From: a virus
Taxonomy: Duplodnaviria; Heunggongvirae; Uroviricota; Caudoviricetes
Reading direction: 5' to 3' (one strand)
DNA: 23,862 nucleotides
Virus record (IMG/VR): IMGVR_UViG_2778261619_000009
Made by a program: the position numbers and the translations under genes. Shown piece by piece: positions 9,567 through 23,862 of this stretch (position 1 is the first letter of the stretch; the number at the start of each line of letters is the position of its first letter). The notes beneath the pieces are model-generated. The model searched no databases and was not told the DNA's origin. It saw only the letters and a program-made list of their open reading frames with translations.

Positions 9567-11333
9567 ATGAACACCACACTGACACCCGCAGATCTCGATC
9601 CCCGTCGGCAGGCCATGCTGCTGTACTTTCAGGGATACCGCGTAGCCCGCATTGCTGAAATGCTGGGCGAGAAAGTTGCAACCGTTCACAGCTGGAAAAA
9701 ACGCGACAAGTGGGGTGACTATGGGCCGCTGGATCAGATGCAGCTCACCACCGCCGCACGCTACTGCCAGCTCATCATGAAGGAGCACAAAGAAGGGAAA
9801 GATTTCAAAGAGATTGACCTGCTGGCGCGCCAGTCTGAGCGCCACGCGCGGATCGGCAAGTTTAACAATGGCGGCAACGAAGCCGACTTAAACCCTAACG
9901 TCGCCAACCGCAACAAAGGCCCACGCCGTCAGCCTGAAAAGAATGTTTTCACCGATGAACAAATTGAGAAGCTGGAAGAAATTTTCCATTCCTCCATGTT
10001 TAACTACCAGCGCCACTGGTGGGAAGCCGGAAAAACCAACCGCATCCGCAACCTGCTAAAGTCACGCCAGATCGGCGCGACCTTCTATTTTGCCCGTGAG
10101 GCCCTGATTGACGCCCTGCTTACCGGACGTAACCAGATTTTCCTTTCTGCCAGTAAGGCACAGGCTCACGTCTTTAAGCAGTACATCATCGATTTCGCCA
10201 AAGAAGTCGAGGTGGAGCTGAAAGGTGATCCGATGGTGCTTCCTAACGGGGCCACGCTTTACTTCCTCGGCACCAATGCCCGCACGGCCCAGAGTTACCA
10301 CGGCAACCTGTATCTGGATGAATATTTCTGGATACCGAAATTCCAGGAGCTGCGCAAAGTGGCTTCCGGTATGGCTATTCACAAAAAATGGCGACAGACC
10401 TATTTTTCCACGCCATCCAGCCTGACACACAGTGCTTATCCGTTCTGGTCCGGTGCGCTGTTCAACCGAGGGCGCAACAAAGCCGATAAGGTGGACATCG
10501 ACCTGTCCCACAGCAATCTGGCCCCCGGCCTGCTGTGCGCAGACGGGCAGTACCGCCAGATAGTCACTGTGGAAGATGCGGTGCGCGGCGGATGTAACCT
10601 GTTCGACCTTGACCAGTTGCGCATGGAGTACAGCCCGGACGAATACCAGAATCTGCTGATGTGTGAGTTCGTGGACGATCTCGCGTCCGTATTCCCGCTC
10701 AGCGAGCTGCAGGCGTGCATGGTAGACAGCTGGGAAGTCTGGACCGACTTTCATGCACTGGCGCTGCGCCCGTTTGGCTGGCGCGAAGTGTGGATCGGTT
10801 ATGACCCGGCAAAAGGTACGCAAAACGGCGACAGCGCCGGATGCGTGGTGGTGGCACCGCCAGCCGTGCCGGGTGGTAAGTTCCGCATTCTTGAGCGTCA
10901 CCAGTGGCGCGGGATGGACTTCCGCGCCCAGGCTGACGCCATCAAAAAACTGACCGAACAGTACAACGTGACATACATCGGTATCGACTCAACCGGCGTC
11001 GGTCACGGGGTTTACGAGAACGTGAAAGCGTTTTTTCCTGCCGTCCGGGAGTTTGTCTACAACCCCAACGTTAAAAACGCCCTGGTACTCAAGGCCTACG
11101 ACATTATTAGCCACCGCCGCCTGGAGTTTGACGCCGGGCACACCGACATTGCGCAGTCATTCATGGCAATCCGTCGCGCCACCACCGCCAGTGGCAACCG
11201 CCCAACCTATGAAGCCAGCCGCAGCGAAGAAGCCAGCCACGCAGATTTGGCCTGGGCAACGATGCACGCACTGTTTAACGAACCGCTGCAGGGCGAAGCC
11301 GCCAATACCAGCAACATTGTGGAGATTTTCTGA
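9567..11333 (+). CDS. P: Terminase large (ATPase) subunit (P2 gpP-like)
   Basis: 588-aa ORF; deviant Walker A (LLKSRQIGAT), Walker B (LYLDEYFW), C-terminal nuclease-like domain; size as P2 P (~590 aa). Confidence 0.9.
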   Translation: MNTTLTPADLDPRRQAMLLYFQGYRVARIAEMLGEKVATVHSWKKRDKWGDYGPLDQMQLTTAARYCQLIMKEHKEGKDFKEIDLLARQSERHARIGKFNNGGNEADLNPNVANRNKGPRRQPEKNVFTDEQIEKLEEIFHSSMFNYQRHWWEAGKTNRIRNLLKSRQIGATFYFAREALIDALLTGRNQIFLSASKAQAHVFKQYIIDFAKEVEVELKGDPMVLPNGATLYFLGTNARTAQSYHGNLYLDEYFWIPKFQELRKVASGMAIHKKWRQTYFSTPSSLTHSAYPFWSGALFNRGRNKADKVDIDLSHSNLAPGLLCADGQYRQIVTVEDAVRGGCNLFDLDQLRMEYSPDEYQNLLMCEFVDDLASVFPLSELQACMVDSWEVWTDFHALALRPFGWREVWIGYDPAKGTQNGDSAGCVVVAPPAVPGGKFRILERHQWRGMDFRAQADAIKKLTEQYNVTYIGIDSTGVGHGVYENVKAFFPAVREFVYNPNVKNALVLKAYDIISHRRLEFDAGHTDIAQSFMAIRRATTASGNRPTYEASRSEEASHADLAWATMHALFNEPLQGEAANTSNIVEIF

Positions 11334-12058
11334 TGCACTCAACCCCAACTAACCTCATGACCACCGCCAGCCTGCCTGTAGATCGCCCTTTCTTTGCTTA
11401 CCAGCATGAATGGAACAGTGGCGCACGCAGCAGAAACCGCGTGCTTACAAAAATGCGTCAGGCTGGCGCGGATTTCTTTTTCGCCTACGAAGCCCTGAAC
11501 GATGCACTGCACACCGGACGCAACCAGATTTTTCTGGGCTGCACCCCGGCATCAGCCCTGACCGTCAAAACCTATATATCAGCTTTTTTAAGTGAGGCAG
11601 CAGCCTGGACGCATCTTGGGAAAATAAAATCAGGTAAAGCGCATCTGGAACTCCCAAACGGTGCGGTCATTTATTTTATCGGGCCGGAAAGTCTCGCTGC
11701 CGCGCTCCATGGAAACGTCTACGTGTCAGAGTATGCCTGGGCTGACTCCCCCAAAAATATGATTGCGCTCGCCAAAAGCCTGTCCATGCACGCGCGCTAT
11801 CACGCTACCTACTACACCACCCCAAGCCCCAGCCCGGAAGCATGGCAGGAATACAAGAATCTGATCGCCCGCAACAGCACTACCTGCATGACCTTTACCG
11901 CTGATGACGCTGCAGCATCCGGGGCTACGCTCGCAACCGGAGCCGCGCTCTTTGATGATGAATGGCTGAATGACATGAAAAAAGAATTATCACCGGAGGA
12001 CTGGAAAATGCTGTTTATGTGCGAATGGCCCCAGGCTGACAAGGAGCAGGCGGCATGA
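11333..12058 (+). CDS. Truncated, degenerate paralogue of the terminase ATPase domain (extra gene between P and Q)
   Basis: 241-aa ORF; ATG overlaps the P stop (TGATG) and its stop overlaps the Q start (ATGA). Aligns by eye to P residues ~140-370 (FFFAYEALNDALHTGRNQIFL vs FYFAREALIDALLTGRNQIFL; LPNGAVIYFIG vs LPNGATLYFLG) with Walker A/B positions altered (KMRQAGAD, VYVSEY). Confidence 0.6.
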   Translation: MHSTPTNLMTTASLPVDRPFFAYQHEWNSGARSRNRVLTKMRQAGADFFFAYEALNDALHTGRNQIFLGCTPASALTVKTYISAFLSEAAAWTHLGKIKSGKAHLELPNGAVIYFIGPESLAAALHGNVYVSEYAWADSPKNMIALAKSLSMHARYHATYYTTPSPSPEAWQEYKNLIARNSTTCMTFTADDAAASGATLATGAALFDDEWLNDMKKELSPEDWKMLFMCEWPQADKEQAA

Positions 12059-13095
12059 GCAAACGTAAAAACAAGAACAACCGCGCAGCGGTGGATCACA
12101 ACGCAGAATCTGGCGGCGCTGCGGCAGAGGCGTTTAGCTTTGGCGACCCGGTGCCGGTGTTAGACCGACGCGAATTGCTGGACTACGTGGAATGCGTGCA
12201 GATGGACCGCTGGTATGAGCCGCCGGTGAGCTTTGACGGACTGGCGCGGACCTATCGCGCTGCCGTGCATCACAGTTCACCAATTGCGGTGAAATGCAAC
12301 ATTCTGACCAGTACCTACATCCCTCACCCGCTGCTCAGCCAGCAGGCTTTTTCACGTTTTGTGCAGGACTATCTGGTATTTGGTAACGCCTACCTGGAGA
12401 AACGCACGAACCGCTTCGGTGAAGTTATCGCCCTTGAGCCTGCTCTGGCAAAATACACCCGACGCGGGTTAGACCTGGATACCTACTGGTTTGTGCAATA
12501 CGGTATGACAACCCAGCCGTATCAGTTCACGAAAGGCAGCATTTTTCATCTGATGGAACCGGACATCAACCAGGAGATCTACGGCCTGCCCGGTTATCTT
12601 TCTGCCATTCCGTCAGCCCTGCTCAACGAGTCCGCCACGCTGTTCCGCCGTAAGTATTACATCAACGGCAGCCATGCAGGCTTCATCATGTATATGACCG
12701 ATGCCGCGCAGAACCAGGAGGATGTGAACAACCTCCGCAACGCGATGAAAAGCGCCAAAGGCCCTGGCAACTTCCGCAATCTGTTTATGTACTCGCCTAA
12801 CGGCAAAAAGGACGGACTTCAGATTATCCCGTTGTCAGAAGTCGCAGCGAAGGATGAGTTTCTGAATATCAAGAACGTGAGCCGTGATGACATGATGGCT
12901 GCGCACCGCGTGCCGCCGCAAATGATGGGGATTATGCCTAATAATGTCGGGGGATTTGGTGATGTGGAAAAGGCCAGCAAAGTCTTTGTCCGAAACGAGC
13001 TAATTCCGCTACAGAAGCGGCTGCAAGAACTTAACCAATGGGTTGGTGAAGAGGTAGCTCGCTTTGAATCATATTGTCTAGAACCAAGGGAATAA
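12055..13095 (+). CDS. Q: Portal protein (P2 gpQ-like)
   Basis: 346-aa ORF; FSFGDPVPVLDRRELLDYVEC, ESATLFRRKYYINGSHAGFIMY and KVFVRNELIPLQ match my recollection of P2 gpQ (344 aa). Confidence 0.9.
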   Translation: MSKRKNKNNRAAVDHNAESGGAAAEAFSFGDPVPVLDRRELLDYVECVQMDRWYEPPVSFDGLARTYRAAVHHSSPIAVKCNILTSTYIPHPLLSQQAFSRFVQDYLVFGNAYLEKRTNRFGEVIALEPALAKYTRRGLDLDTYWFVQYGMTTQPYQFTKGSIFHLMEPDINQEIYGLPGYLSAIPSALLNESATLFRRKYYINGSHAGFIMYMTDAAQNQEDVNNLRNAMKSAKGPGNFRNLFMYSPNGKKDGLQIIPLSEVAAKDEFLNIKNVSRDDMMAAHRVPPQMMGIMPNNVGGFGDVEKASKVFVRNELIPLQKRLQELNQWVGEEVARFESYCLEPRE

Positions 13096-13139: not shown

Positions 13140-13979
13140 TTAGATGGCTGGGTTGATGTAATCACCCACGTCATCACCTTGTAGACTAATGTACTCAACC
13201 CGCCACTGGTCCATTCGCCGTAACGCATACAGACTGAATTCAACGTCAGGAACTGCGTTACAAGACATAAGCGCAATGAGTTCACTTTCAGACGCATCAC
13301 CATGGTACGTTACAAAGAACTCTTCAATTTGTGTTGCCGCCTGCTCTGCCTCTGCTCTTGCATCCGGCCCACCATCTATAGAATCATAGACAAGATGAAT
13401 ATTCAGTTCGTAAGGTACACCTTCCTCTAAATCATTGAAACGATCTTCGCCTAAATCAAAGAATATACCTATCAAATAGACTGAATGTTTGCTAATTATC
13501 TTTGCGAGTTCTTTTTCGAATCTAAATTTCTTTGTGTCGAAAGCTCTTAGCCTACTCTCAAAAACATCAGGAAAGGCAGGTCGCCCATAGCGGGCAGCAA
13601 GCCATTGTTTTAAACCTTGCTTTTCCTCAGGGGATATTTGGCAAGTAGGGTCACATCCCACACACGTGAAACGTTCTTTATCAATACGAAATTTGTTGTC
13701 ATGTCTTAGTTCAATTGCATTTTGATTCGCGTCACGCGCTTGCTCTAAATGCAAATGCAGAACTCTGGGATGTTTAGCACGTGCATAATTGCTGGCCCCC
13801 TTAATGAGAGGGCCAGCAATAAGCTCAACGCTGGGTTCAGAAGAGCTTTGCAAGTCACAATCATGACTGATCACGACAACTTTAACGCCTATTTCCTCTT
13901 CGGTAAGAATACCCAAAGAAACCGCATCCTCATGCCTAAGAACCTGGCCTTGGCGCCATGCTGTAGCAATATCAACCAT
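13140..13979 (-). CDS. Cargo protein C, 279 aa, unknown function (contains HDC...CVGCDPTC cysteine cluster)
   Basis: ATG at 13979, 10 nt after the ORF B stop; AT-rich codon usage unlike flanking phage genes; no recognisable family motif by eye. Confidence 0.7.
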   Translation of the reverse strand: MVDIATAWRQGQVLRHEDAVSLGILTEEEIGVKVVVISHDCDLQSSSEPSVELIAGPLIKGASNYARAKHPRVLHLHLEQARDANQNAIELRHDNKFRIDKERFTCVGCDPTCQISPEEKQGLKQWLAARYGRPAFPDVFESRLRAFDTKKFRFEKELAKIISKHSVYLIGIFFDLGEDRFNDLEEGVPYELNIHLVYDSIDGGPDARAEAEQAATQIEEFFVTYHGDASESELIALMSCNAVPDVEFSLYALRRMDQWRVEYISLQGDDVGDYINPAI

Positions 13980-13989
13980 AAATGACTAT

Positions 13990-14631
13990 CTACTCCTTCA
14001 TTCCTGAACCAGGTATAGAAACAGACGACATCCACCCGTCAGTTGGCGTGCTTTTGCTCCCAGTTAAATTCGCTTTTACACCTGCAATTTTAAGCTGGCG
14101 AGCTTCATCGATTAAGAGATTCACAGACGACTTCCAGTCATCGCCTCGCTTAATCAAATCAATAATAGATAAGCCGTCAAACGCTTTCATTTTTGACATC
14201 AACTTAGCATTTTCTACTCCTGCTTTGTTAAAGCGATCGGCTAATCTACTGAGTTCAATGATGTAACCAGCTTTCCCAATATCATCAGGCTGACTGTCAC
14301 CGGATAACCATTTGTATAATGCTTGCCTAGTAATACCCAAATCTTTAGCCAGTTCTGACATTGATGGAGAAAGAGTATCCCTAACATTACTTAAATGTTC
14401 TGAAATTGTCCTGATATCAACAGGGTCATTATCTGTATCCCCATGATTTTCAAGTTTAGATAACCCAAAATGGACTTTAGGTTGTACAAAACCACGCCAC
14501 TGGTTTACATCCTTCACAGAATAGCTCGCTCCTGTTCCACTCAGGAACATAGAGGTTGCAACAAATAACGCTCCAGCAATAGGAGCTAAACCAGGAGTCC
14601 CATAGCAACTACCAGTCATGGATTGACGCAT
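13990..14631 (-). CDS. Cargo protein B, ~213 aa: N-terminal hydrophobic segment plus XRE/Cro-type helix-turn-helix
   Basis: Track ORF starts at GTG 14658; trimmed to ATG 14631 preceded by GGGGAGGTG. Hydrophobic stretch LAPIAGALFVATSMFL (residues ~15-30) and HTH SMSELAKDLGITRQALYKWLSG (residues ~90-110). Confidence 0.7.
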   Translation of the reverse strand: MRQSMTGSCYGTPGLAPIAGALFVATSMFLSGTGASYSVKDVNQWRGFVQPKVHFGLSKLENHGDTDNDPVDIRTISEHLSNVRDTLSPSMSELAKDLGITRQALYKWLSGDSQPDDIGKAGYIIELSRLADRFNKAGVENAKLMSKMKAFDGLSIIDLIKRGDDWKSSVNLLIDEARQLKIAGVKANLTGSKSTPTDGWMSSVSIPGSGMKE

Positions 14632-14648: not shown

Positions 14649-15455
14649 TTATACCCACCTATTAATGGCATGTTGGGATACCATTTTATTAAAGCTTTCC
14701 TTTACAACACCATGTAGTGAATTGAACTGTTGCTCAATTGAATCTATTTCTGGCGGCATGTTTCCTTCAACATAATGGTCTGTATCAATAATTCCATGCC
14801 AAAGAGCCTTGTCGCTCCTGAACCGCTCAAGCATTTCAACCCCAAAGGGCAAGATATCTGGAGGAAAACTCAACTGACCAAACATCTTATGCAAACGAGT
14901 TACTAAAAAGCCAGTACTTATAACAGGACCAACATTTGTTTGGAAAACCATCTCGTTAACCGATTGTATCGGAGATAAATCCAAATCTACACCATGTAAG
15001 CCATTGCAAAGGTACTGCTCAATCTTTTCACCCTCACTAGGTATTACGGCATCCAGATACCTCAAACCAAGTCTTGTCAAAAGGGCTGGGTTAGCATGTT
15101 CTATTACGACAGACAATCCTTCCATCAATGCTTTAAAGAACGGTTCATGTTCTTTGTAATCAGTCGTCTGGAAAGTAATAAAATCGTTACCCAAGACAAA
15201 ACCTGAAGTCTTAGTGATGTCAGACATATACCACTGCTGGACCATTTCAAAAGATGGCTGAGGCGATTCACCGGGCGTATTAACATCAAACACCATTTGC
15301 ATTGCCTCTCTTCTTTCAAAGAGTGGATAGCCCCTTAAACGCAATGCTTCCTGAATGTCATCGACATACTTTTTCATCGCCTTGATAGGCGTAAACTTAA
15401 CTTGCGCCAGCACATAGTATACGGGTGCATTGGACATGCGATTGCTGTCACTCAT
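14649..15455 (-). CDS. Cargo protein A, 268 aa, unknown function
   Basis: ATG at 15455 preceded by AGGAGGG (spacing 4); AT-rich; first gene of the three-gene operon. No nucleotide-binding or nuclease motif recognised. Confidence 0.7.
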   Translation of the reverse strand: MSDSNRMSNAPVYYVLAQVKFTPIKAMKKYVDDIQEALRLRGYPLFERREAMQMVFDVNTPGESPQPSFEMVQQWYMSDITKTSGFVLGNDFITFQTTDYKEHEPFFKALMEGLSVVIEHANPALLTRLGLRYLDAVIPSEGEKIEQYLCNGLHGVDLDLSPIQSVNEMVFQTNVGPVISTGFLVTRLHKMFGQLSFPPDILPFGVEMLERFRSDKALWHGIIDTDHYVEGNMPPEIDSIEQQFNSLHGVVKESFNKMVSQHAINRWV

Positions 15456-15570
15456 GTCGCCCTCCTAATTTTAAAATCCATCAATAACGTTCTTTTCAAT
15501 ATAGTTTACATCTTGGTTGACACATTAACCATAACAAAGTTCCATCAAAACATCTTTTGATAACTTTATA
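15456..15570 (-). promoter_or_regulatory. AT-rich leader/promoter region of the cargo operon
   Basis: ~115 bp AT-rich sequence between the cos-like site and the ORF A start, with a TAAAAT -10-like hexamer on the minus strand and a strong SD; exact promoter not resolved. Confidence 0.3.
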
Positions 15571-15589
15571 TTTAAACTACCGGGCGCGC

Positions 15590-15608
15590 GCTCGTATCCC
15601 CGCCACGC
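15590..15608. other. cos: Candidate cos (cohesive-end) site of the prophage
   Basis: Minus-strand reading GGCGTGGCGGGGATACGAG within a short GC-rich island in an otherwise AT-rich intergenic region. From memory the P2/186 19-nt cohesive ends begin GGCGAGG/GGCGTGGCGGGGAAAGCA..., so the first 13 nt match 186; location is the expected A-to-Q interval. Confidence 0.5.
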
Positions 15609-15653
15609 CTGCCCGCTTTATGTAGTGGTTTTCATGCACCTGCATGATCTACG

Positions 15654-15677
15654 CAAAAGCCCGCCAGTTCTGGCGGG
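15654..15677 (-). terminator. Intrinsic terminator of the SOS-regulated small-ORF/DinI-like operon
   Basis: GC-rich hairpin gcccgccag / ctggcgggc; on the minus strand it is followed by UUUUG, ~135 nt downstream of the DinI-like stop. Confidence 0.6.
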
Positions 15678-15813
15678 CCTTAGCAAAAACGATCCTCAAA
15701 CGATCATGCGATCTCATGCGGCATAGACATGCACTACAGAGCTAACGCCTCGCAAGGACTCGTTGTTCAACCTTGCTGACGCCAGAAGCAAGTTCAGACG
15801 CCAGCAACGTTTC

Positions 15814-16047
15814 TTAATGCAGCCAGCTGTCGTCTTCCCACACCTTCTGCATAATTTTCATCACTTGTTTTCTTTCTTCGTCCTGTTGCAGCCCGGTCAG
15901 TTCCACACCGTTAGAGCTACCTTTGCGGATACGAATTACCGTTTTGGGATACAGGGGGCGCAGATTGCGGTAAAGCTCGGATTCAAGGGCGTCCAGGGTA
16001 GACTGGCTAATCTTCTGCTCTTTATCGATCATTATTTCAATGCGCAT
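15814..16047 (-). CDS. dinI: DinI-family protein (DNA-damage-inducible protein I-like)
   Basis: Track ORF 15814..16119 trimmed to ATG 16047 (MRIEIMIDKEQ...DALESELYRNL...VWEDDSWL), 77 aa, GAGGTG SD; closely resembles E. coli DinI (MRIEVTIAK...DALAGEL...). Confidence 0.8.
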   Translation of the reverse strand: MRIEIMIDKEQKISQSTLDALESELYRNLRPLYPKTVIRIRKGSSNGVELTGLQQDEERKQVMKIMQKVWEDDSWLH

Positions 16048-16057
16048 AAAAGTCACC

Positions 16058-16246
16058 TCAGCTGATGACATCCATTGAGCGGTTGTATTCGTGGCTTCTG
16101 ATTTTTGCCATGAGTTCATCAGTCAATTCAGAAACCCACTGCAGAGCCAGCCCCTTCTCTTCATCACTACACTCACTAGCCGCTACAAGCTTAAGAAAAA
16201 AATCAATGCGCTGGAGCTTCAAAGACTCCAAAAAAAAGTCCTGCAT
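16058..16246 (-). CDS. Small SOS-regulated protein (62 aa), first gene after the LexA box; possible Tum-like antirepressor fragment
   Basis: ATG at 16246 with perfect AGGAGG SD; track ORF 16058..16348 is a 5' extension that would run through the LexA box. Function inferred only from position. Confidence 0.5.
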   Translation of the reverse strand: MQDFFLESLKLQRIDFFLKLVAASECSDEEKGLALQWVSELTDELMAKIRSHEYNRSMDVIS

Positions 16247-16399: not shown

Positions 16400-18814
16400 T
16401 CAATACAGGTTCCGCCACTTATCATCTTCCTGCAAACGCTGGTTCCGATAGAAGATACGCAGGCCTGCTCCTGACGGAATACTGCCGCCGCGAATGAGTA
16501 AATCGACCTCTTTCTCGCTGCCATCAAATCCTCTGGACTTCAGTTCATAGACGAGCTGCTGTCGTTGATGGTCAGTAATTCGCTGTTTGTAGTCTCTACG
16601 CCGTTTCGGTTTCACCAGGCGTAACCTTGCAGCCAGTTCCCGGCGCTCTTTTTTGTTCATACTGTGCAGGTAATCGTGCAACTCCTTGTCATCCATGCGG
16701 GTGATATCCGTTCTGGTATCCCCATCAGCTGATTTGTCTTTCCCTTGTTGGTACAAATTTTCAGCAAGGGGACAGTTATTGCCACGAGTCCAAGGGGCGC
16801 AAGCGCCCTGGTCGGCTGCCGCCTCCTGAACGTCAACGGCCTTACGAACCATTTTCCACTTCACGGCATGAGTGCAGATCTTGCCCTCTGCAATAGGTGA
16901 CCAGATGCCATAAATACGAATGCCGTGATCGCCATAGGCGGTCGGCTCTTCGTTGATTTCATAAGCAGTTCTGATGAGGTGATATTTGCGGGGAACCAGT
17001 ACGCCACCCTGCTTCATGATGTAGGTGGCAAAACAACCAGCATCAGCAGCAGCCAGAATGGCATCAAGGCGCGGGTTATCCAGTACCGGCGCACCTGCTT
17101 TTTTGTCCCCCTGTTGCCTTGCCGCCTGACCAGCCAGCAATCGCAGTTCACGGTAAGCCTGACGCCCCGGAATGCCAAAGAAGCGGAATTGCTGAACACG
17201 ATGCAGAGACGCCCAGGCATTAACGTATTCAGCATTATCACGCAGGGATTTCCCCGTTTCCTTGCTGATCTCGCCAGCCAGACCACGACCGTCAATGTTC
17301 TTACTGATATATTTCGCGATGTAGCTTGTCGGCGTTCCTTTGCGCGGGTTAATCAACTCAGACTTAAAGCGCGGCCCAGTGTTATTGCCCAGCTCCTCGC
17401 GGTCTTCACGGATGGCAAACTTACGCAGTAATGCAGTAATGGCACGGCGGTCTTTTTTGCGCATGAAACACAACAGGTGCCAGTGAACTGTGCCGTCATG
17501 ATGCGGCTCAGCCACCCGCACGCCATACCAGCGCAACCCGGCTTTGTGCATCGCCTTACGAAATGCAGCAAACATGCCGACCAGATAATCGCTGCTTTGT
17601 CTTACCGTCGCGTTTGTCCAGGTCGGGTTTGGTCTGCCGTTATTTAGCGTGGAATGGAAACGCGACGGACAGGTGATAGTGTAGAAAACGGCGCAGTCAC
17701 CGCGCATTTCCGCGATAAGCTCCAGACCTTTAACACAGGCCATCATCTCATTGCGGCGATGCGCAGGGTTGCTGCTGCTGGCGTTTACCACATCCTCCAT
17801 GTCCAGCGTGTCGCCGTCTTCGTTCACCAGTTCATGAGAACGGAAAAACTCCAGCGACTTACGGCGCTGCTCACGTTTATGCATCACGGCTTCATAGCTG
17901 ACATAGGGAGATGCTTTTTTGCTGACCAGACAGACAGCACGTAACTGCTCTTCCCGCCATTCGCAACGCATCTTCCATAATTTCCGATACCACCAGTCGG
18001 CGCACAGCATACGCGCCAGCGAACCCGGAATGAGTTCATAGGGCACAGGTTTGCGGCGGTTTCTTTTCCGGCGGAGTTGCTCAAACGCAGGCGGTATGAC
18101 ATCCAGTCGCAGGGTTTCTGCTGCCACCTTTTCCCATGTCTTGCGGATTTCTTCCGGCTTAACATCATCGGAGGCGTACAAATCACCACAAGCGGCATCA
18201 AGACACATGCTCATATGCGCAGCGACAAGGGTGGACAGGCGTTTCACCTGATCCTGACTCATTTCAGGCAGGATCAGCAGACCGTCCAGCCCTTCATGGC
18301 TTGCCATAAAACGAAAAGATGCAGATAGCTGGCTGTCGCGTACATGCTCCAGTCGTTCCAGGCATGGCTTAATCGTCTCACGCAAATAGCGGGAATAAGC
18401 CTTTGGCCTGCCCAGGTTGCTGAAGTATTTAATACGTTGCATCAGCGGCTTGCTGATATGGGAAGGCTGGGCGTTGACATCCGCCAGAATGACCATGTCC
18501 GGATTAAAACGCTGCTGCTCATGCGCCAGCTTTGCCCGGCTAATTAGCTTATCCTGCTCCATTTCGCGCTGGACAGGATCACGGGATTCATTAAAGAAAT
18601 AACGCTCCCAGACCTGATCACTCAGTGCCTCGCGGCGCAGTTGTTCCTGCTCGTTATCGGCAGCGTACAAAGTGATCAGGTTTGAAAGCGCAGAAACCGG
18701 CGCAACTTCCGCCGGGTCCAGATAAGGGTTAATGGCCTTTTTCGGGCTGTTCCATGAGAATGCTGCGGCAGCCTCGTTAAAGCCGCAGCAGTTGTTCATA
18801 TCGGCATGACTCAT
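16400..18814 (-). CDS. A: Replication initiation endonuclease, rolling-circle type (P2 gpA-like)
   Basis: 804-aa ORF, ATG at 18814 (ATGA overlap with dam stop); histidine motif GTVHWHLL and tyrosine active-site pair in [11 protein letters not shown], typical of P2 A-family initiators. Confidence 0.9.
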
Positions 18815-21719: not shown

Positions 21720-21844
21720 GATGCAACATTCCTCGTTTAATGATGATTAATCAGGACGAATACGGATCGTTTGTATTTTGTGAACACCATAAACATACGA
21801 TCGTACAATGAAATCGTCAAGATAAAAGTTCACTTGGAGTGACC
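21720..21844. promoter_or_regulatory. Lysis-lysogeny switch region (face-to-face promoters and operators) between apl and cI
   Basis: Intergenic region between divergent apl and cI; two copies of an ATACG(G)ATCGT-containing palindromic motif (21759..21777, and 21794..21810 with perfect TACGATCGTA); TACAAT -10-like hexamer at 21803..21808. Confidence 0.5.
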
Positions 21845-22414
21845 ATGAATTTGGAGAAAGGCGGACGAGGCGCTATAGAGCGCATGGTAGAAGCTTATGG
21901 ATTCAAAACTCGACAGGCGTTGTGCGATCATTTAGGAATCTCTAAAAGTACACTCGCCACACGCTACATGCGTGACTCATTCCCAGCAGAATGGGTAATC
22001 CAGTGCGCCCTTGAAACGGGCACCTCGCTTAATTGGCTCACAACCGGACATGGTTCAAAGCAAACTTCAGGTAATACAAATACTATGGAAGTTGCTAAAT
22101 ATGTATTATCTGATGGTGCCTTGCGTGAAGACGGTTTTTATATTTTTGATAAGGGATTTCTACCCTCTACGTTTAAAAAACCTTTTGTCATCACAGATAA
22201 CAATTCTGAATTTATTTGTGATAAAGAATTTGATGATATACGTGATGGTAAATGGGTAATAAGTATTGATGGCGAAGTAACGATCCGTGACATTACTCGT
22301 TTACCCGGTGGAAGAATCTTCGTCGAGGGTGGAAACAGAGCCTTCGAATGTAAGATAGAAGACATTGAAATAATTGGTAAAATTATAAGTTTAACAGTCA
22401 AGTATGTTAAATAG
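21845..22414 (+). CDS. cI: CI-type immunity repressor (phage 186 CI-like)
   Basis: Track ORF starts at GTG 21839; ATG 21845 with GGAG SD gives 189 aa; N-terminal HTH (RQALCDHLGISKSTLATRY) and separate C-terminal domain; 186 CI is ~192 aa. Confidence 0.75.
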   Translation: MNLEKGGRGAIERMVEAYGFKTRQALCDHLGISKSTLATRYMRDSFPAEWVIQCALETGTSLNWLTTGHGSKQTSGNTNTMEVAKYVLSDGALREDGFYIFDKGFLPSTFKKPFVITDNNSEFICDKEFDDIRDGKWVISIDGEVTIRDITRLPGGRIFVEGGNRAFECKIEDIEIIGKIISLTVKYVK

Positions 22415-22429
22415 TACCGGGAGGAAACT

Positions 22430-22621
22430 ATGCTTGGTAAGGTATTTTTTGTGGTTTTGTCATGTTCTTTGTTATTAAACCCACTAACTACCTATGCTAG
22501 AAATTATCCCTGCTCAGGGAAAAAGGGAGGTGTTTCTCACTGTACCTCAGATGGCAAATTCGTTTGCAATGATGGAACTATTAGTAAATCCAAAAAAATC
22601 TGTACTAAAAACTCACGATAA
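22430..22621 (+). CDS. Small secreted cysteine-containing protein (63-aa precursor), AT-rich moron
   Basis: GGAGG SD 5 nt before ATG; N-terminal signal-peptide-like segment ([23 protein letters not shown]) followed by a ~40-aa Lys-rich peptide with four cysteines; very AT-rich relative to neighbours. Confidence 0.55.
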
Positions 22622-22809
22622 CTTTTGCTTTTATATCTGCGTCTAAAATAAAAATGAGCCGCAGGTTAACCGCAAAAGTTACATGCTCACATAGCAAAAA
22701 GAATAGCCAACTTCATTATGGCTTCAGTGAGATGTATGGTCGTAGGATTTCATACATTGACACTGGTTATACATACAGTAAAAATGCTCTCTACTGGAGG
22801 GCATTTTTT

Positions 22810-23862
22810 ATGGCAGTACGAAAACTCACCACAGGGAAATGGCTTTGCGAATGTTACCCCGCCGGACGAAGTGGGCGTCGTGTGCGTAAACAATTCGCCA
22901 CCAAAGGCGAAGCTCTGGCTTTTGAGCGTCACACTATGGAAGAAACCGAATCAAAGCCATGGCTGGGCGAATCAGTGGATCGTCGAACCCTGAAAGACGT
23001 GGTTGAGCTATGGTTCAAACTACATGGTAAATCTCTGACTGCTGGGCAGCATGTCTATGACAAATTGCTGCTGATGGTTGACGCTCTGGGCAATCCTCTT
23101 GCAACCGATCTCACCTCTAAAATGTTTGCCCACTATCGAGATAAACGCCTGACAGGCGAGATCTACTTCAGCGAGAAATGGAAGAAAGGAGCAAGCCCGG
23201 TCACCATTAACCTGGAGCAAAGCTATCTAAGTAGTGTTTTTAGCGAACTATCCCGTCTGGGCGAATGGTCGTATCCGAACCCACTGGAGAACATGCGAAA
23301 ATTCACCATCGCAGAAAAAGAGATGGCATGGCTTACCCATGAGCAGATTGTTGAATTACTGGCTGATTGCAAACGTCAGGACCCAATTCTAGCACTGGTA
23401 GTTAAGATATGCTTAAGCACAGGCGCACGCTGGCGAGAAGCCGTAAATCTTACTCGTTCACAGGTGACCAAATACCGAATTACCTTTGTAAGAACGAAGG
23501 GGAAGAAAAACAGAAGTATCCCTATCAGTAAAGAGCTTTACGAAGAGATCATGGCGCTTGATGGGTTCAATTTCTTCACAGACTGCTATTTTCAATTTTT
23601 ATCCGTGATGGAAAAAACGTCTATCGTGCTCCCTCGCGGTCAACTCACACACGTTCTGCGCCATACGTTTGCGGCGCACTTCATGATGTCGGGTGGAAAC
23701 ATTCTGGCCTTACAAAAAATTCTCGGACACCACGATATAAAAATGACTATGCGTTACGCACATCTGGCACCGGATCATCTGGAAACGGCGCTCCGTTTCA
23801 ATCCTCTGGCAACGCTGCCAAGTGGCGACAAAGTGGCGGCAGCGGTTGGCATTACCCCGTAA
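22810..23862 (+). CDS. int: Tyrosine integrase (P2/186-type)
   Basis: Track ORF 22654..23862 trimmed to ATG 22810 (MAVRKLTTGKW..., GGAGGG SD); C-terminal catalytic signature ...HVLRHTFAAHF...LGHHDIKMTMRYAHL; stop codon is the last triplet of the window. Confidence 0.9.
   Translation: MAVRKLTTGKWLCECYPAGRSGRRVRKQFATKGEALAFERHTMEETESKPWLGESVDRRTLKDVVELWFKLHGKSLTAGQHVYDKLLLMVDALGNPLATDLTSKMFAHYRDKRLTGEIYFSEKWKKGASPVTINLEQSYLSSVFSELSRLGEWSYPNPLENMRKFTIAEKEMAWLTHEQIVELLADCKRQDPILALVVKICLSTGARWREAVNLTRSQVTKYRITFVRTKGKKNRSIPISKELYEEIMALDGFNFFTDCYFQFLSVMEKTSIVLPRGQLTHVLRHTFAAHFMMSGGNILALQKILGHHDIKMTMRYAHLAPDHLETALRFNPLATLPSGDKVAAAVGITP

Follow-up and report, generated by a model that had tools for sequence, protein, structure and literature searches.

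The stretch of DNA analysed here (the window; all 23,862 nucleotides of IMG/VR virus record IMGVR_UViG_2778261619_000009) is a P2-like prophage which, in addition to the terminase, portal, DinI-like and replication genes listed in Table 1, encodes a Dam methylase, a CI-type repressor and an integrase. An E. coli chromosome is 99.8% identical to the window, and RefSeq gives the same functions there. Between the replication gene gpA and the portal gene gpQ lies a cassette of three genes, A, B and C, transcribed in that order, with 17 nt separating the stop of A from the start of B and 10 nt separating the stop of B from the start of C. The GC content of the cassette genes is 41-44% (41% for gene A), compared with 53-56% for the phage core. 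In both location and composition the cassette is cargo of the P2-like hotspot, and two papers describe the gpA-gpQ locus as the principal hotspot of P2-like phages for anti-phage systems and as a reservoir of them (PMC9122126; PMC13586616).

Table 1. Positions of the cassette genes, the signals upstream of gene A and the surrounding prophage genes in the window.
Feature	Position	Strand	Basis or description
Terminase gpP	9567-11333	plus	Window gene
Portal gpQ	12055-13095	plus	Window gene
Gene C (279 aa), putative effector/toxin	13140-13979	minus	Predicted N-terminal MazF/CcdB/Kid-like domain and C-terminal alpha/beta domain
Gene B (213 aa), Xre-type HTH protein	13990-14631	minus	Start of RefSeq homologue; Pfam HTH_3
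Gene A (268 aa), TIGR04255 family	14649-15455	minus	ATG-started ORF; NCBIfam match; AlphaFold2 model
Shine-Dalgarno sequence AGGAGG of gene A	15461-15466	minus	Read from sequence; 5 nt before the ATG at 15455
AT-rich leader from cos-like sequence to gene A; presumed promoter/operator region	15467-15576	minus	Sequence
DinI-like gene	15814-16119	minus	Window gene
Replication protein gpA	16400-18814	minus	Window gene

An initial annotation of the window had placed A first in the cassette and credited it with the best translation signal of the three genes, and both statements hold. On the 5' side of A, the AT-rich leader and a cos-like sequence are all that separates it from the terminator of the DinI-like gene, and the AGGAGG of A is almost equalled by the GGAGGT of B, which likewise stands 5 nt before its ATG. 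This ATG, at 14631, is the start used by a RefSeq homologue of B; an alternative GTG at 14658 would extend the protein to 222 aa. Gene C is preceded by AAGGAG at a distance of 13 nt from its ATG. A scan of the minus strand of the leader for the sigma-70 consensus gave no promoter match. The leader contains two copies of the 8-mer TTGATGGA (read on the minus strand; 15477-15484 and 15541-15548, 64 nt apart), which are possible operator half-sites for B, although two copies of so short a sequence may be a matter of chance.

Two further elements separate the leader from the DinI-like gene. The terminator of that gene is formed by a GC-rich hairpin and, after it, a T-run (GGCCCGCCAGAACTGGCGGGCTTTT, approximately 15655-15679, minus strand), which the terminator scan missed. 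The cos-like sequence GGCGTGGCGGGGATACGAGCGCGCGC, located within 15577-15680, matches the part of the Rousset et al. hotspot clones that contains cos (Table S2A). Its position would place the cassette at the gpQ-side end of the packaged linear genome, and its match to these clones identifies the cassette as cargo in the cos-proximal gpA-gpQ locus.

Inspection of the rest of the prophage revealed additional variation. A 241-aa gene at 11333-12058 (plus strand), situated between gpP and gpQ, is absent from the closest relative, a near-identical prophage in E. coli MFDS1001074 (L001). The gene encodes a stand-alone Terminase_6N (ATPase) domain that is 33% identical to residues 145-368 of gpP, with neither an N-terminal HTH nor a nuclease domain. 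Inserts of this kind are found in 21 of the 5426 complete E. coli genomes, where they are annotated as 'terminase large subunit domain-containing protein'. The product could modulate packaging or could act for or against satellites. The L001 prophage in turn carries, between the CI repressor and the integrase (L001:20746-23996, corresponding to window positions 21839-23862), an extra gene for a 443-aa P-loop NTPase and a small ORF, which mark a second variable locus of the same phage.

The initial annotation had suggested, as a hypothesis, that proteins resembling A belong to TIGR04255. A search of NCBIfam bears this out: protein A scores 161.2 bits (E 3.9e-47) against a curated cut-off of 30 bits, and its residues 6-267 align with positions 1-251 of the 252-position profile, which makes it a full-length member. 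The identical E. coli protein already bears the TIGR04255 name in RefSeq. The NCBIfam entry gives no function and its name holds no reference to the gene context described below; the family has no Pfam model and no solved structure, and a literature search for 'TIGR04255' and for the RefSeq accessions found no paper that mentions either. A profile search of 1.84 billion representatives from a library clustered at 50% identity recovered 4068 clusters at E<=1e-3, of which 570 reach E<=1e-30, with family members nearly all about 260-270 aa in length. The breadth of this family, together with the full-length NCBIfam match, argues that A is a genuine gene and not a chance ORF.

Several sequence properties of A are as first described. 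The protein has a mixed charged and hydrophobic composition (23 Lys and Arg residues and 34 Asp and Glu residues, making it acidic overall), the highest 19-residue Kyte-Doolittle mean is 0.96, which indicates that it has no transmembrane segment, and the P-loop pattern [AG]xxxxGK[ST] does not occur in it. The statement that A has no recognisable catalytic signature fared less simply. It stands as far as curated libraries are concerned, since A matched nothing in Pfam, PADLOC v2, PHROG or the sequences of the PDB, a profile built from 49 sequences matched no PDB chain, and no match to a characterised non-defence enzyme family was found. It does not extend to the pattern of conservation, because A contains an invariant constellation of polar residues that resembles an active or ligand-binding site.

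This constellation emerged from a comparison of two deep clades of the family, spanning 21-100% identity to A. Fourteen residues are invariant in both (P11, F21, Q35, R39, Y100, F106, G130, R132, D135, R187, D224, D226, F255 and W267), and R128, Y133, D200 and H248 are conserved in at least 90% of the sequences. The segment RLGLRYLD (residues 128-135), which the initial annotation had singled out as conserved-looking, proved to be the best-conserved motif of TIGR04255 and contains the invariant G130, R132 and D135 as well as R128. An AlphaFold2 model based on the 49-sequence alignment (pLDDT 91.8, pTM 0.88) consists of two beta-alpha-beta4-alpha repeats, in which R128 and R132 are predicted to share one face of the strand 126-137 and D224 and D226 a common face of the strand 218-233. 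Invariance of this kind over 21-100% identity would be less usual in a scaffold than at an active or ligand site, and the many fixed charged residues thus point to a putative catalytic or ligand-binding site.

Structural comparison placed A in no fold family. Foldseek against the PDB ranked just weak matches to AdoMetDC, TBP and EspG (E>=1e-3, TM about 0.27), for which reason we read the model as a pseudo-dimeric beta-sheet platform that has no close solved relative and is not a kinase. Phosphagen (arginine/taurocyamine) kinases, McsB and the glutamine-synthetase-like 'cradle' enzymes count among the nearest known comparisons; for the phosphagen kinase and glutamine-synthetase-like enzymes, neither a family HMM match nor the catalytic motifs were found in A.

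The nature of the putative site bears on what A does within the cassette. One proposal casts A as the catalytic effector. It could, for instance, be an ATP-dependent phosphotransferase or ligase with a glutamine-synthetase/guanidino-kinase-like beta-sheet cradle that would modify a host or phage target, with B and C serving as regulator and adaptor. We regard this proposal as distinctly unlikely.

We then examined the genomic neighbourhoods of A homologues, a check that the initial annotation had put forward. Among 80 genome loci drawn from one-genome-per-species contigs (A 38-89% identical to that of the window; 76 not cut by a contig end), a C homologue follows on the same strand about 650 nt downstream of A in 73 of the 76 untruncated cases. 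The organisms represented are Gamma-, Beta- and Alphaproteobacteria together with genomes or MAGs that bear the labels Omnitrophota, Nitrospirae, Verrucomicrobiae, Chloroflexota, Acidothermus, Bryobacteraceae and Bacillota. Loci inspected one by one at A identities of 64, 57, 44, 36, 29 and 28% each contained three genes, with homology of B and C confirmed. Among 58 IMG/VR viral loci, the A-B-C arrangement is likewise present in every one that has enough sequence, and it recurs, confirmed by HMM, in the second deep clade (Acinetobacter, Pasteurella, Nitrosococcus and others), whose A proteins are 21-26% identical to that of the window.

The reverse search gave the same picture: starting from C, genes A and B were found upstream in 65/65 metagenome loci with at least 1600 nt of upstream sequence. 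With very few exceptions, A homologues thus travel with B and C, and synteny persists across many phyla even where the identity of A has fallen from 100% to about 21%. The TIGR04255 protein is, always as far as sampled, the first gene of one three-gene cassette.

The three genome loci that lack C (L060, L068 and L092) each retain A and B. In two of these, both from Methylococcaceae (L060:3428-4594 and L068:2209-3375), a 389-aa Fic protein (motif HPFGNGNGR; PADLOC SoFic) is encoded about 390 nt downstream of A-B, at the place of C, and may represent either replacement of the effector or a mere defence-gene neighbour. Fic genes also flank the full cassette elsewhere (L024:5169-6455 and L084:2313-3467). 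We considered Fic as a regular fourth partner and rejected this, since the 390-nt gap and the varying positions of the four Fic/SoFic-like neighbour clusters indicate association and not membership of the operon.

A closer tie between A and B is suggested by a 433-aa protein of the representative library (P0208), in which a TIGR04255 domain (residues 1-257) is joined to the HTH and C-terminal tail of B and the hydrophobic N-terminus of B is missing. The protein has the sequence of a natural A-B fusion and may be either genuine or a product of frameshift or misassembly. Together with the survival of A-B in the absence of C, it indicates that A works through B.

Protein B is an HTH protein by several lines of evidence. 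It scores 23.4 bits against Pfam HTH_3 (E 6e-5; cut-off 23) and matches PHROG transcriptional regulators, PADLOC v2 returned just weak HTH-type matches (RmrA and mad1, E 0.003-0.008), and its profile yields generic HTH matches in the PDB, among which the sole hint related to toxin-antitoxin (TA) systems is MbcA (E 0.13). An alignment of 42 sequences reveals an order of features that opens with a variable N-terminus, which includes a hydrophobic stretch, and continues with a GTG...W element, the HTH (residues 90-116 approximately in the 213-aa form, with the motif GV[ST]RQA[IL]YKW), a KMKAFxGxS motif (also written KMKAFxGRS) and a tail. In the first clade this tail is conserved as SKxxPTDxWxSxxSIPGxxE (also written SKxxP[ST]xDWxSxxSIPGxxE) and ends in xxE(x) in most sequences. 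The hydrophobic stretch GLAPIAGALFVATSMFLSG (residues 14-32 approximately in the 213-aa form) has a 19-residue Kyte-Doolittle mean of 1.56 and is followed by the nearly invariant GTG...W; it resembles a borderline membrane helix, which is odd for an HTH regulator.

The conserved ends of B invite two other views of its relation to A. We entertained the tail as a Pup-like substrate, with a C-terminal Glu, of a ligase-like A and retain this as no more than speculation, on the grounds that the second clade lacks the conserved tail while the site of A stays. Alternatively, A could be a chaperone or stabiliser of B, comparable to SecB in TAC or MqsC in MqsRAC, that holds the N-terminal segment or the tail of B and is titrated during infection. 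The A-B fusion, the retention of A-B without C, the conserved extensions at both ends of B and the weak Foldseek matches of A to the EspG chaperone are all compatible with such a role, whereas the persistence of the charged and polar invariants of A in the second clade despite a different B tail, the low probability of the EspG matches (0.14-0.33) and the lack of SecB similarity in A lead us to consider it quite improbable. The fixity of the polar site of A where the tail of B changes suggests that A binds something invariant, either a small phosphorylated or nucleotide ligand or the RY-RPAFP motif of C.

Protein C, encoded by the last gene, is predicted to consist of two domains (pLDDT 79.7, pTM 0.50), and its model has the SH3-like barrel fold of the MazF/PemK/CcdB superfamily. 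The resemblance to MazF and CcdB is at the level of predicted fold only. Searches of Pfam and NCBIfam, including the PemK_toxin and CcdB models, gave no match at E<=0.1, PADLOC v2 and PHROGs gave none, a 32-sequence profile recovered neither a MazF or CcdB chain nor anything else meaningful from the PDB, and the catalytic residues of MazF were not identified in C. Conservation in C is concentrated in an invariant HDCD in the N-terminal domain, which reads SQSCD in the second clade, and in the motifs WLAxRYxRPAFPxxF and DQWRxEYIS, with WLAARYGRPAFP occupying a central position. With B, the gene for a DNA-binding antitoxin candidate thus lies directly upstream of the gene for a toxin candidate.

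The surroundings of the cassette are almost never alike: clustering at 60% identity sorted the 255 genes that flank it in the 80 genome loci into 229 clusters, indicating a highly variable context. By Pfam, these flanking genes include integrases, IS66 and Mutator transposases, a resolvase, phage GPA, terminase, DNA methylases, ResIII/SNF2 helicases and four Fic clusters, as well as ordinary metabolic and regulatory genes (LysR regulators, cytochrome b, EAL proteins). By PADLOC, they include HmaA, SoFic, components of type I, II and IV RM, JetD, AbiEii, Hhe, MkoA, PbeA and the candidates PDC-S04 and PDC-S37. In approximately 38 of the 58 viral loci a P2-type portal gene, with products 59-100% identical, lies convergently just downstream, which assigns these loci to the same hotspot. 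Other carriers are Klebsiella and Enterobacter elements with a DUF927 primase and Phage_ASH, and one lambdoid prophage.

Individual loci illustrate the same setting. An Arenimonas cassette adjoins BrxR and an SNF2/NOV_C helicase, and the divergent cassette of A. baumannii (L159-L161, 6001-8264) is located terminally in an element that also carries Bro-N, DUF927 primase and SSB genes, with a type I RM system a few kilobases downstream. With index entries for its A protein in about 500 blocks of the collection, this variant is common in A. baumannii. The mobile and defence contexts anticipated by the initial annotation are therefore borne out by the gpA-gpQ hotspot, by other prophages and by positions beside RM, Hma, Wadjet, AbiE and SoFic genes. 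Of 5426 complete E. coli genomes, 19 carry the cassette (one near-identical and 18 distant copies), such that the window variant is rare. A tblastn search of GenBank phage records with A retrieved two distant Acinetobacter records only, and the cassette is essentially absent from isolated phages.

Mobility and gene order by themselves could also be explained by plain addiction, with the cassette acting as a TA module that maintains prophages and islands through post-segregational killing or stabilisation, has no specific anti-phage role and uses A as an accessory regulator. An HTH gene that precedes a MazF/CcdB-like gene is the order expected of a TA module, the cassette occurs on many different mobile elements and islands, and about one quarter of P2 hotspots hold maintenance (partition) rather than defence genes (PMC9122126). 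However, plasmid-style addiction would be of little gain to integrated prophages, simple addiction needs no strictly conserved third component with an enzyme-like character, and the cassette often adjoins defence genes. We consider this explanation unlikely.

A role outside genetic conflict altogether, as a lysogenic-conversion or a metabolic or regulatory module, would fit the metabolic character of some chromosomal neighbours and the derivation of the defence role from context so far. It accords poorly with the lack of a match to any characterised enzyme family, the extreme variability of the flanks, the patchy distribution across phyla, the repeated presence of the cassette in phage and satellite hotspots and the MazF/CcdB-like predicted fold of one component, and we judge it highly improbable.

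Comparison with catalogued systems showed that the cassette has been recorded before. Rousset et al. 2022 (PMC9122126) catalogued it as system #59 ('HTH_31'), which their Table S5B counts 69 times in 18,150 P2 loci and which is absent from the tested systems in Table S2. Cassette and gpA-gpQ locus are the same as in the window, with 57% identity between A and protein 1 of the system and 53% between B and its protein 2. The window carries a divergent variant, and the accessions of its own C and B proteins are present in Table S5A. The rarity of the cassette among complete E. coli genomes (19 of 5426) is in line with this frequency. Identity with the validated Rousset system '3HP' (Rst_3HP) was rejected, as the best E value in BLASTP comparisons of A, B and C with its three proteins was 0.48 and the protein sizes differ. 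P2 old/tin and 3HP share the cos-proximal gpA-gpQ hotspot with the cassette and encode unrelated proteins. In PADLOC-DB v2.0.0, A and C match no defence family, and the cassette was not recognised as a known or candidate system.

Relative to classical TA systems (MazEF, Kis-Kid and CcdAB), the cassette differs in each of its parts. Protein C, at 279 aa, has the extra HDCD and WLAARYGRPAFP motifs and a second domain; the antitoxin candidate B is of Xre-type HTH and not of the MazE or CcdA type; and a third gene, A, precedes the pair. Tripartite TA systems (HigBA-SecB 'TAC', MqsRAC, HipBST and PaaR-PaaA-ParE) combine a toxin, an HTH protein that acts as antitoxin or regulator, and a third, accessory component. 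The cassette follows the same three-part logic, with the differences that its accessory gene comes first and that A is not SecB-like. None of the searches run matched A, B or C to the families of these systems.

Taken together, these observations lead us to propose, with moderate confidence, that the cassette is a TA-like abortive-infection (phage-exclusion) module in which A serves as an enzyme-like sensor or controller. The placement of an HTH gene upstream of a gene with a predicted MazF/CcdB fold, the tight coupling of the genes, the weaker translation signal of the last gene, the mobility and foreign composition of the cassette and its location in the hotspot form the signature expected of such a module. 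Counting against this TA-like reading are the pTM of 0.50, the absence of a PemK or CcdB profile match and the SQSCD variant of C; the failure of A and C to match any PADLOC v2 model; the three loci that keep A-B without C; the unexplained hydrophobic N-terminal segment of B; and the many ordinary chromosomal neighbours.

In the TA-like module that we favour, C would be a toxic, growth-arresting effector acting through its MazF/CcdB-like N-terminal domain, and B, encoded just upstream, would repress the operon and neutralise C, keeping it in check. Protein A would provide the sensing or catalytic function by binding a ligand through its invariant Arg/Asp/Tyr/His cluster, probably a phosphorylated or nucleotide-type molecule or else a conserved partner peptide. 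Physical contact between A and B would then decide the release of C, which would give the cassette its anti-phage phenotype.

We also advance, tentatively and as a possibility on the unlikely side, a broader version of this proposal. The A-B-C cassettes might constitute a widespread new anti-phage class in which A is a hitherto unrecognised enzyme with a two-repeat beta-sheet platform and an invariant Arg/Asp site. When a phage infects, this enzyme would convert or bind a ligand of the nucleotide type, or would act on a conserved B or C peptide by modifying it, and would thereby free a MazF/CcdB-like effector from an HTH antitoxin.

The family was already on record as an NCBIfam name and the cassette as a line in a supplementary table. 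New in our analysis are the strict A-B-C rule, which spans two deep clades, the candidate A-B fusion, the predicted MazF/CcdB-like fold of C and the conserved site of A. An anonymous hypothetical protein thus becomes a cheap-to-test candidate for a tripartite TA/abortive-infection defence system with a new third component. If the proposal is true, it would provide a function for a family of several thousand clusters that has neither a Pfam entry nor a literature. Validation would add a system missed by PADLOC v2 and would help to identify what is recognised at the invariant Arg/Asp site of A.
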